DNA of 24,000 nucleotides from Alphaproteobacteria bacterium. Its GTDB lineage: Bacteria; Bacteroidota; Bacteroidia; Bacteroidales; FEN-979. The stretch's first letter is position 1. Each line of letters begins with the position of its first letter. The stretch spans positions 1 through 24,000 of the forward strand of contig SACF01000039.1 in assembly GCA_009928665.1 (NCBI GenBank). Direction: 5' to 3'. The notes beneath the pieces are model-generated. The model did not search any database, was not told where the DNA came from, and saw only the letters and a list, made by a program, of their open reading frames with translations. The position numbers and the translations under genes were made by a program. Positions 3,330-4,668 of this stretch are shown piece after piece.

Positions 3330-4370
3330 ATGACCAATTCTGACTACATTACCGGAACCTACACCTTGGGCGACCTGGAAATCCCGCGGGTTGATACCCG
3401 TTGGAGCGCAACCGACCTTTGGGGAACTTTGAAGGTTCGCTGGTCGTTCGGCCGGATGGATTACAAAGTGAAACCGGGTCTCTATGCCGTGGGATCACCC
3501 GACCGCCAATCGCTGGTCTTTGTATCGGCCAACTACAAACTGAGTTTCGATCACCTGCGCCGGGCGCTGGAGGGCATGAACGCCTGGATTCTCGTCATCA
3601 ATACCCGGGGGATCAACGTGTGGTGCGCGGCAGGCAAAGGGATCTTCAGCACCAAAGAAGTCGTCCGCCGGATCCGGATTGACCACCTCGACCAGGTCGT
3701 CGATCACCGCAGGCTGATCCTGCCGCAGTTGAGCGCAACCGGCGTTGCTGCCCACCAGGTTCAAAAGATGACCGGCTTTTCAGTCATATTCGGTCCGGTC
3801 AAAGCCGCCGATATCAAAGCATTCGTCGAATCCGGCCTGAAAGCAACGGAACCGATGCGAACGGTGACCTTTCCGCTGAAGGAGCGGCTGAAGGTGATCC
3901 CCGTCGACATTTTTTACGGAACCCATTATCTGATCCTTATCCCGGCGCTTTTCTTCTTCCTTTCCGGATTATCCTCCGGTGGATATTCCTTCGACCGGAC
4001 GCTTCAGCACGGATGGAATCCTGTGGTCAACCTCTTCGCCGGCTACCTGACCGGCTGTGTCGTGACCCCGGCCCTGCTGCCATGGATACCCTTCCGCAGG
4101 TTTTCGTTAAAAGGTCTCCTGATGGGATTTCTTACAGCCACACTGCTTCTCATTACCGGATCCTTCGGAACAAACCCGCTGGAGATCCTTGCCTGGTTTC
4201 TGATGACCGCCGGCCTCTCTTCGTTCATGGCGATGAATTTTACCGGATCGTCGACCTTTACCTCTATTTCGGGTGTTCAGAAGGAGATGAAAGTGGCGCT
4301 TCCCGTTCAGATCGCCCTGGTCGCAGTGGGACTGGCCCTTTGGATTGCCTCACTTTTTATAACTTTGTAA
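3330..4370 (+). CDS. hgcA: HgcA, corrinoid-binding membrane protein of the mercury methylation system
   Basis: 346 aa. It carries the diagnostic cap-helix motif GINVWCAAGKG (Cys99, nt 3624..3626), embedded in the conserved LYAVGSP...VFVSANYKLSFDHLRRAL...RRLILPQLSATGVAAHQV corrinoid domain. About five predicted TM helices follow in the C-terminal half. hgcB starts 1 nt after the stop. Confidence 0.9.
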   Translation: MTNSDYITGTYTLGDLEIPRVDTRWSATDLWGTLKVRWSFGRMDYKVKPGLYAVGSPDRQSLVFVSANYKLSFDHLRRALEGMNAWILVINTRGINVWCAAGKGIFSTKEVVRRIRIDHLDQVVDHRRLILPQLSATGVAAHQVQKMTGFSVIFGPVKAADIKAFVESGLKATEPMRTVTFPLKERLKVIPVDIFYGTHYLILIPALFFFLSGLSSGGYSFDRTLQHGWNPVVNLFAGYLTGCVVTPALLPWIPFRRFSLKGLLMGFLTATLLLITGSFGTNPLEILAWFLMTAGLSSFMAMNFTGSSTFTSISGVQKEMKVALPVQIALVAVGLALWIASLFITL

Positions 4371-4371
4371 C

Positions 4372-4668
4372 ATGAATGGATTTGTTTATCTCCCCGATGT
4401 AGTGACCCTGGAGCTGGATGCCGCAAAATGCAACGGTTGCCGGATGTGTACCCGGGTCTGCCCGCACGCCGTTTTCGAAATCAGAGACCGCAAGGCTTTC
4501 ATCCGGAACCGTGATCACTGCATGGAATGCGGAGCCTGCGCGCTGAACTGTGTCACGGGCGCCATCACCGTCAGGTCGGGCGTGGGTTGTGCAGCCGGAA
4601 TCCTCAACGGGTTGATCCGGGGCACCGAACCCACCTGTGACTGCAGCAGCAGCGGGAGTTGTTGCTGA
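4372..4668 (+). CDS. hgcB: HgcB, 2x[4Fe-4S] ferredoxin partner of HgcA
   Basis: 98 aa. It has two CxxCxxCxxxCP-type clusters (CNGCRMCTRVCP and CMECGACALNC, including the HgcB-typical C(M/I)ECGA motif at nt 4519..4539). It also has the conserved internal Cys in GVGCAAG and a C-terminal vicinal Cys pair (GSCC*, nt 4660..4665). It is tightly coupled to hgcA (TAA-c-ATG). Confidence 0.9.
   Translation: MNGFVYLPDVVTLELDAAKCNGCRMCTRVCPHAVFEIRDRKAFIRNRDHCMECGACALNCVTGAITVRSGVGCAAGILNGLIRGTEPTCDCSSSGSCC

Follow-up and report, generated by a model that had tools for sequence, protein, structure and literature searches.

An intact hgcA–hgcB gene pair of the mercury-methylation type downstream of arsR in an uncultured Bacteroidales lineage

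The hgcA–hgcB pair and its identity

We analyzed a 24,000-nt stretch of DNA (contig SACF01000039.1, positions 1–24,000, forward strand), referred to as a whole as the window, which carries hgcA and hgcB, together the sole known genetic determinant of microbial methylmercury formation. Both genes lie on the plus strand, with hgcA at 3330..4370 encoding a corrinoid protein of 346 amino acids (aa) and hgcB at 4372..4668 encoding a 98-aa ferredoxin with two [4Fe-4S] clusters. A single nucleotide separates the TAA stop codon of hgcA (4368–4370) from the ATG of hgcB at 4372, in agreement with a first-pass annotation of the window that had reported these two open reading frames (ORFs). Comparison with curated NCBIfam models, a check suggested in that annotation, placed both proteins above cut-off: HgcA scored 435.3 bits against NF040863 (HgcA_corrinoid; cut-off 275, E=1.3e-130), with residues 18–343 matching model positions 1–324 of 325, and HgcB scored 120.7 bits against NF040864 (HgcB_ferredoxin; cut-off 99, E=1.7e-35), with residues 6–98 matching model positions 2–93 of 93. 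Pfam returned only the generic CdhD domain for HgcA and ferredoxin domains for HgcB.

HgcA is composed of a corrinoid-binding domain at the N-terminus (approximately residues 45–167, nt 3462–3830; Pfam CdhD at residues 45–165) that contains the cap-helix motif NVWCAAGK (N96–K103, nt 3615–3638; Cys99 codon 3624–3626), followed by a five-helix transmembrane domain (residues 183–341, nt 3876–4352), an architecture that the first-pass annotation had proposed and that the analysis bears out. Hydropathy analysis detected five hydrophobic segments in the C-terminal half, and an AlphaFold2 model built from a 43-sequence alignment (mean predicted local distance difference test score (pLDDT) 84.1, predicted TM-score 0.72) shows an N-terminal domain of alpha/beta type, with five long helices spanning residues 183–211, 229–248, 258–276, 283–307 and 313–341. 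Using Foldseek to compare this model with structures in the PDB, we identified as top match 9a0b_A, the deposited integrative model of HgcAB from Pseudodesulfovibrio mercurii (Desulfovibrio desulfuricans) ND132 (E=3e-21, 45% identity, 325 columns), followed by corrinoid iron–sulfur protein (CFeSP) large subunits that matched through the corrinoid-binding domain only. A sequence search of the PDB returned CFeSP large subunits only and no HgcAB entry, and the ND132 model surfaced via the fold search.

To place the pair among its relatives, we compared the window with 80 loci from GTDB (labeled L001 onward) and with a contig from Logan (L081). The 80 loci come from metagenome-assembled genomes (MAGs) of Bacteroidota, Ignavibacteriota, Desulfobacterota-type, Chloroflexota, Planctomycetota, Kiritimatiellia, Lentisphaerota and Firmicutes affiliation, and alignment of their HgcA and HgcB proteins comprised 79 alignable HgcA and 81 HgcB sequences. 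In 79/79 alignable orthologues, drawn from at least eight phyla, the cap-helix columns N-V-W-C-A-A-G-K vary little or not at all and the Cys column never, with that Cys conserved in Desulfobacterota, Chloroflexota, Planctomycetes–Verrucomicrobia–Chlamydiae (PVC) and Firmicutes MAGs too. The hgcB gene lies directly 3′ of hgcA in 80/80 loci.

In HgcB, cysteines 20/23/26/30 and 50/53/56/60 form two CX2CX2CX3C motifs, the second opening with CMECGAC at residues 50–56, and these are followed by Cys73 in GVGCAAG and by tail cysteines 89, 91, 97 and 98, the last two forming the terminal GSCC; all three HgcB signatures named in the first-pass annotation are thereby located. Among the 81 sequences the cluster-motif Cys columns are kept in 80–81, the nine core cysteines in 79–81, Cys73 in 79 and the four-Cys tail in 61. 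Residue 61 (nt 4552–4554) is Val, and the second cluster motif ends in C-V rather than the canonical C-P. Because Pro follows this motif in only 43 of the 81 orthologues, 'CxxCxxCxxxCP' fails as a family-wide description of the second HgcB motif.

The genetically defined HgcAB system of ND132 shares with the window its two-gene layout and domain architecture, an identical cap-helix motif, the HgcB cysteine numbering through Cys73, a C-terminal vicinal Cys pair and an arsR-family gene directly upstream; for HgcA the comparison was made through full-length alignment to the deposited model 9a0b_A and not residue by residue. In ND132 HgcB, for which the roles of the cysteines have been described, residues 20/23/26/60 belong to cluster A and 50/53/56/30 to cluster B, and Cys73 is essential (PMC7305189). 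The cap-helix cysteine is Cys99 in the window and Cys93 in ND132 because the window protein has an N-terminus six residues longer. The two systems further differ in the HgcB tail (four cysteines in the window, two in ND132), in the end of the second cluster motif (CV in the window, CP in ND132), in the regulator (a CxC pair plus one distal Cys in the window ArsR, a four-Cys site in ND132 ArsR2) and in the host, which is a member of the Bacteroidales rather than a sulfate reducer. Published high-stringency criteria for hgcAB call for one of six cap-helix motifs of the form N(V/I)WC(A/S)(A/G/S)GK, whose Cys is the homologue of Cys93 in ND132, for C(M/I)ECGA, and for hgcB on the same contig (PMC10087281); with NVWCAAGK, CMECGAC and an adjacent hgcB, the window is called as hgcAB by this standard, as the first-pass annotation had argued.

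At the DNA level the window matches JAQWBQ010000013.1, from the MAG 'Bacteroidales bacterium STF2_223', with ~96.5% identity, and another MAG contig with ~97%. The HgcA it encodes shares 99% identity with a protein cluster, including that of MAG STF2_223, to which NCBI has already given the name 'mercury methylation corrinoid protein HgcA [Bacteroidales bacterium]', in keeping with the view of the first-pass annotation that the system itself is not new. The gene order of the window recurs in L001 (a 70-kb contig), in L002 and in the Logan contig, which encodes the exact window HgcA protein. At E<=1e-10 we recovered 7,528 HgcA homologues, with orthologues at 47–72% identity in more than 60 Bacteroidota-labeled MAG species and identities of 60–72% to many MAGs labeled Bacteroidales or Prolixibacteraceae. 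In a neighbor-joining tree of a 123-residue corrinoid-binding block, which was rooted on a CFeSP fragment, includes no fused HgcAB-like sequences and is indicative only, the window HgcA nests in a large Bacteroidales group beside Bacteroidales and Prolixibacteraceae-labeled MAGs, placing it inside the HgcAB clade of Bacteroidales/Bacteroidota that is documented in MAGs (Peterson 2020, McDaniel 2020) as well as in the isolate Paludibacter jiangxiensis NM7. Between the window and its two near-identical assemblies, the ratio of nonsynonymous to synonymous polymorphism (pN/pS) is 0.09–0.10 for hgcA and 0–0.06 for hgcB, indicating purifying selection and genes that are being maintained. Together, these data very probably identify the locus as a genuine unfused HgcA–HgcB orthologue pair of the Bacteroidales clade. 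The window hgcAB is an ordinary intact copy, neither a new kind of system nor a new lineage, and the clade has been published since at least 2020.

The arsR gene, a candidate operator and the ars context

Upstream of hgcA, arsR (2940..3272, plus strand) encodes a 110-aa ArsR/SmtB-family metalloregulator recognized by Pfam HTH_5 (44.1 bits) and HTH_20 (44.3 bits) and by NF033788 (60.2 bits, cut-off 55). The protein carries Cys40-x-Cys42 at the predicted alpha3 position, which judged by eye only looks like the ELCVCDL site of R773 ArsR, plus Cys81. In ~55 of the 80 loci, hgcA has an ArsR-like gene upstream of it on its own strand, and the arsR of ND132 shares a transcript with hgcAB, which it regulates (bioRxiv 10.1101/2022.10.17.512643). 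The window arsR probably encodes a repressor and forms the first gene of the hgcAB operon.

A palindrome at 2912..2929 (plus strand), TATCG-TATATTTG-CGATA, sits 12 nt upstream of arsR, whose ATG begins at 2940. Promoters of Bacteroides and other Bacteroidetes have a −7 box of consensus TAnnTTTG, and the 8-nt spacer of the palindrome (2917–2924) matches this consensus, which makes it a candidate −7 box. The core of the palindrome (TCGTATATTTGCGA; TCGTANNTTTRCGA) has a single copy in the window, where 0.01 chance matches would be expected, and is present as one copy on the hgcA strand in 22 other loci. Across the resulting 23 sites, window included, arsR is preceded by a conserved palindrome, nnTCG-TAnnTTT(G/A)-CGAnn, in Bacteroidales hgcAB loci (among them L004, L024, L030–L032, L034, L038, L042, L045, L047–L050, L053–L055, L059, L060, L062 and L063), and an ORF with an ArsR-type N-terminus begins 10–28 nt downstream in 19 of the 23. 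The flanks of the palindrome covary, such that position −1 (A/G/T = 4/4/15) mirrors position +14 (T/C/A = 4/4/15) and position −2 mirrors +15; among these sites, those of the window, L001 and L002 come from near-identical sequences and are not independent of one another. This pattern marks the palindrome as a candidate ArsR operator, at which a dimeric repressor would occlude the −7 box.

Intergenic gaps measure 57 nt between arsR and hgcA, 1 nt between hgcA and hgcB, and 26 nt between hgcB and a flavin-reductase-like gene at 4695..5288 (plus strand). The arsR–hgcA gap contains no Bacteroidetes −7 box, and the other plus-strand matches to this box, at 4360 and 4973 only, both fall inside coding sequence. 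On the basis of this spacing, of the conserved palindrome around the −7 box and of the co-transcription known from ND132, arsR, hgcA, hgcB and the flavin-reductase-like gene most likely form one operon with a single promoter, in which the flavin-reductase-like gene is probably the last member. A terminator-like hairpin with a T-run at 5306..5322 (plus strand), a consensus match located between the convergent flavin-reductase and CrtI-like genes, is the probable operon end; terminator-like sites in the window occur at background level (10 found, 6.9 expected), and scans of this kind are ill-suited to Bacteroidota. The −7-like box at 4360–4367 (plus strand), TAACTTTG, lies within the 3′-terminal codons of hgcA, with 4 nt left before the ATG of hgcB; a normal leader would not fit into so short a distance, and the match is probably due to chance. 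An imperfect 12-2-12 inverted repeat at 2886..2911, GATTTTTTCATG gt CATTGAAAAATC, overlaps the start codon of the divergent cation efflux gene of the cation diffusion facilitator (CDF) family. We dropped this repeat as an ArsR operator because it occurs only in the window, L001 and L002, while the palindrome with the −7 box is shared across loci; the repeat could be an element of the CDF side or a chance match.

In 55 of the 63 Bacteroidota-type loci, hgcAB forms the distal part of an ars-type operon with ars genes on the hgcA strand, and the accompanying genes are drawn from arsR, arsC of the low-molecular-weight protein tyrosine phosphatase type, acr3, arsP, and DsbD/CcdA-like, thioredoxin-like and ArsM-like genes (examples among L003–L066 are L006 3072–7035, L053 1753–7327 and L046 1134–7529). 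None of arsC, acr3, arsP, DsbD-like, thioredoxin-like or ArsM-like genes was found in the 24 kb of the window. The lineage represented by the window, L001, L002 and the Logan contig shares the arsR–operator element with the wider Bacteroidales clade but differs from it in having arsR directly at hgcAB, with no arsC, acr3, arsP or DsbD-like gene, and instead a divergent CDF gene and the downstream flavin-reductase-like gene. Despite the lack of ars structural genes, this lineage keeps arsR directly before hgcA, the operator and a selected hgcAB, and the strong purifying selection on hgcAB is thus independent of the presence of ars genes beside it. The association of ars genes with hgcAB and its control by ArsR have already been discussed (PMC7438021; bioRxiv 10.1101/2022.10.17.512643), which makes the ars-less lineage a variation in context and not a discovery.

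We tentatively suggest, while giving it the smaller share of our belief, that Bacteroidales hgcAB may belong to an ArsR-controlled metalloid-stress regulon in which one promoter, with its −7 box inside a palindromic operator, would drive arsR, any ars genes and hgcAB. If this is true, the methylmercury capacity of an abundant and highly transcribing Bacteroidales clade would be induced by As(III) or by some other thiophilic metal(loid), and the window lineage would provide a natural minimal arsR–hgcAB arrangement, free of ars genes, for a clean test of the regulatory link. The arsR–operator–hgcAB segment is likewise a convenient construct for studying metal(loid) control of hgcAB expression in Bacteroidales.

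Proposed mechanism and alternative readings

By analogy with ND132, HgcA would be anchored in the membrane by its five helices, with the cytoplasmic CFeSP-like domain binding a corrinoid and Cys99 serving as the lower axial 'Cys-on' ligand. The two [4Fe-4S] clusters of HgcB would reduce the cobalt to Co(I), which would then be methylated, and Cys73 together with the flexible tail cysteines 89/91/97/98 would handle Hg(II) and CH3Hg+ during methyl transfer to mercury. ArsR is predicted to repress the promoter of arsR–hgcA–hgcB–flavin reductase until a thiophilic metal(loid) binds the regulator. All organisms with unfused hgcAB tested to 2022 methylate Hg (PMC10087281), and carriers of the fused gene yield no methylmercury (PMC10087281, PMC5893877).

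That distinction makes paralogues the first concern, and the window proteins could in principle be non-methylating relatives, either of the fused HgcAB-like type of Pyrococcus furiosus and Methanococcoides methylutens, neither of which methylated Hg in culture (PMC5893877), or of the Wood–Ljungdahl CFeSP/CdhD type. The generic CdhD match from Pfam and the label 'acetyl-CoA decarbonylase/synthase complex subunit gamma' given by JGI to some members of the HgcA cluster fit such a reading, but we consider it extremely unlikely in light of the NCBIfam cut-offs, on which the discrimination rests rather than on the tree. The HgcAB_like model of the fused paralogue scored 211.5 bits for HgcA and 52.4 bits for HgcB against a cut-off of 285, and the AcsC/PRK04165 model (acetyl-CoA decarbonylase/synthase gamma) scored 64.8 bits for HgcA against a cut-off of 306, whereas the HgcA model gave 435 bits against a cut-off of 275. 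Fused HgcAB-like proteins are single polypeptides, while the window has two separate genes with a stop codon between them. CFeSP large subunits (AcsC/CdhD; PDB 2h9a, 2ycl, 4djd) share with window HgcA a corrinoid-binding Rossmann-like domain with a cap helix that superposes at a root-mean-square deviation of 1.8–1.9 Å over ~125 residues with 26% identity, in accord with the corrinoid-binding domain described in the first-pass annotation. However, only this C-terminal domain of CFeSP aligns (residues 318–440 of a 445-residue chain), the Cys99 column is occupied by Thr374 in the Carboxydothermus protein (numbered by counting from the printed alignment), and the remainder of CFeSP includes an N-terminal 4Fe-4S domain (according to PDB entry titles); window HgcA instead has its five-helix transmembrane domain. 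In the neighbor-joining tree, CFeSP is set apart from all HgcA sequences by a long branch. HgcA thus groups with neither kind of paralogue by profile cut-off, nor with CFeSP in the tree, and the homology of its cap-helix Cys, on which the first-pass annotation had staked its call, is borne out by the invariant column in the orthologues.

It is also very unlikely that the pair is a leftover of horizontal transfer that is decaying or not expressed, or that errors of binning or assembly placed it in a Bacteroidales genome to which it does not belong. The distribution of hgcAB in Bacteroidales is patchy and horizontal transfer has been widely inferred (PMC7438021; bioRxiv 10.1101/2020.04.01.018762), but both ORFs are intact with every essential residue present, pN/pS is at most 0.10 among three independent assemblies, and the gene order is repeated in L001, L002 and the Logan contig. 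The GC content of the hgcAB region (0.53–0.54) lies within the range of the flanks, the composition profile of the window contains no foreign-island signature, the promoter and operator are of Bacteroidales type, and the flanks carry Bacteroidota hallmarks such as a type IX secretion system (T9SS) sorting domain. A different kind of alternative accepts the gene identification and departs from ours on physiological role only: hgcAB would be genuine, with Hg methylation a side reaction and the selected role in arsenic or metalloid stress or in corrinoid-dependent reductive dehalogenation of halomethanes. The ars-type genes that share the strand of hgcA at 55 of the 63 Bacteroidota-type loci, the conserved candidate ArsR operator and the regulation of ND132 hgcAB by ArsR2, which responds to As (bioRxiv 10.1101/2022.10.17.512643), are consistent with the metalloid version, and the dechlorination of CCl4 by heterologous ND132 HgcAB reported in a 2026 preprint (bioRxiv 10.64898/2026.04.26.720869) with the dehalogenation version. 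We regard this alternative as possible but doubtful: the 24 kb available for the window lineage contain no ars structural gene and hgcAB is still strongly constrained, and the dehalogenation idea comes from a single unreviewed preprint on a deltaproteobacterial enzyme. The ars-less lineage bears on the native role of HgcAB, for which halomethane dehalogenation is a further candidate (bioRxiv 10.64898/2026.04.26.720869).

Returning to the reading of a mercury-methylating hgcAB under ArsR control, several points count against it. HgcA residues 96–104 (nt 3615–3641) form the least confident segment of the AlphaFold2 model, with pLDDT <50 and no helix modeled, and the model therefore does not establish the Cys-on geometry; the low confidence probably reflects a cofactor-dependent element modeled without its corrinoid. 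The second cysteine of the ArsR pair, Cys42, varies among homologues, which weighs against naming any one inducer. The operon and its operator are predictions from sequence, and scans for sigma-70-type promoters, which are uninformative for Bacteroidota, were at background in the window (6 found, 4.7 expected). Methylation in vivo depends on corrinoid supply, a methyl donor and Hg uptake, which lie beyond the reach of 24 kb of sequence; we hold it to be likely that the host methylates Hg, with less assurance than we attach to the orthology of the genes. A methylation test in any Bacteroidota or Paludibacter was not found in the searchable open-access literature, which may miss some reports.

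This agrees with the account in the first-pass annotation that Bacteroidota carriers are known mainly from genome bins without experimental confirmation (PMC5893877, PMC7573106, PMC10087281, bioRxiv 10.1101/2020.04.01.018762). Publications of 2018, 2020 and 2022 describe Bacteroidetes, or every clade other than Desulfobacterota, Firmicutes and Euryarchaeota, as still untested at the time (PMC5893877, PMC7573106, PMC10087281), and methylation had been shown only in those three groups as of 2022 (PMC10087281). A monophyletic Bacteroidetes/Ignavibacteria HgcAB cluster has been described, with a dominant share of hgcA transcription in a thawing fen and cultured hgcAB carriers in Paludibacteraceae and Marinilabiliaceae (PMC7438021), and Lake Mendota has yielded hgcA+ Bacteroidales bins in a study that also notes Paludibacter jiangxiensis as an isolate yet to be tested (bioRxiv 10.1101/2020.04.01.018762). 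In fens, lakes and reservoirs, Bacteroidota rank with the most abundant hgcAB carriers and with those most active in transcription, and the window hgcAB is a clean example with the full set of sequence criteria that is usable as a template for heterologous expression. As the window lineage is an uncultured MAG, it is a poorer candidate for a methylation test than the cultured hgcA+ Paludibacter jiangxiensis NM7.

Neighboring genes and other features of the window

Two genes flanking the arsR–hgcAB segment are restricted to the window lineage. The CDF efflux gene (2093..2902, minus strand), divergent from arsR and relevant as context outside hgcAB, was identified by Pfam Cation_efflux (55.5 bits); it scored 70 bits against TIGR01297 CDF, below cut-off, and its HMA-like N-terminus, with a single Cys in MDCPSE, scored 21.1 bits against HMA, below the cut-off of 24.8. 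Among the 80 loci this gene is present in L001 and L002 only. A −7-like box for the CDF gene, TACTTTTG, lies at 2948–2955 (minus strand) inside the arsR coding region, such that the divergent promoters would overlap and the candidate operator palindrome would fall in the CDF 5′ leader. On the other side, the flavoredoxin-type flavin-reductase-like gene (Pfam Flavin_Reduct, 116 bits) is found among the 80 GTDB loci in L001 and L002 only, and in the Logan contig too, and its pN/pS of 0.19–0.26 indicates weaker constraint than on hgcAB. From its position, the product could be an accessory redox partner; we rejected it as a conserved partner of HgcAB, as it is absent from the other 78 loci. A convergent CrtI/amine-oxidase-like gene follows downstream.

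The first-pass annotation had described the genome as Bacteroidota-like and T9SS-bearing. The ~96.5% identity to a Bacteroidales MAG upholds the taxonomy, but for T9SS the window offers only a cargo sorting domain: an S41-peptidase-like ORF at 20925..22850 (minus strand) ends in a T9SS C-terminal sorting domain that scored 27.1 bits against a cut-off of 27 (Por_Secre_tail), and no gene for the secretion machinery was found in the window. An NHL-repeat protein at 10944–11780 (minus strand) has an 'NFPNPF' C-terminal region with no match to the Pfam tail model. Both proteins are secretion cargo and not machinery.

Rfam and tRNA scans of the whole 24-kb window gave no match, cobalamin riboswitches included. 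ORFs without a family assignment include those at 7174–8192 (plus strand), 14576–16548 (plus strand) and 23137–23874 (minus strand); the unassigned types comprise small membrane proteins, lipoprotein-like and outer-membrane beta-barrel-like proteins, and a 245-aa repeat-rich ORF without a Pfam match. Alignment of the window with L001 left blocks of ~470 bp (8514–8984) and ~320 bp (10056–10378) present in the window only, and ~285 bp (L001 9934–10219) present in L001 only. These blocks lie near a DUF6544 gene and small ORFs and could be strain-level indels or differences in assembly.

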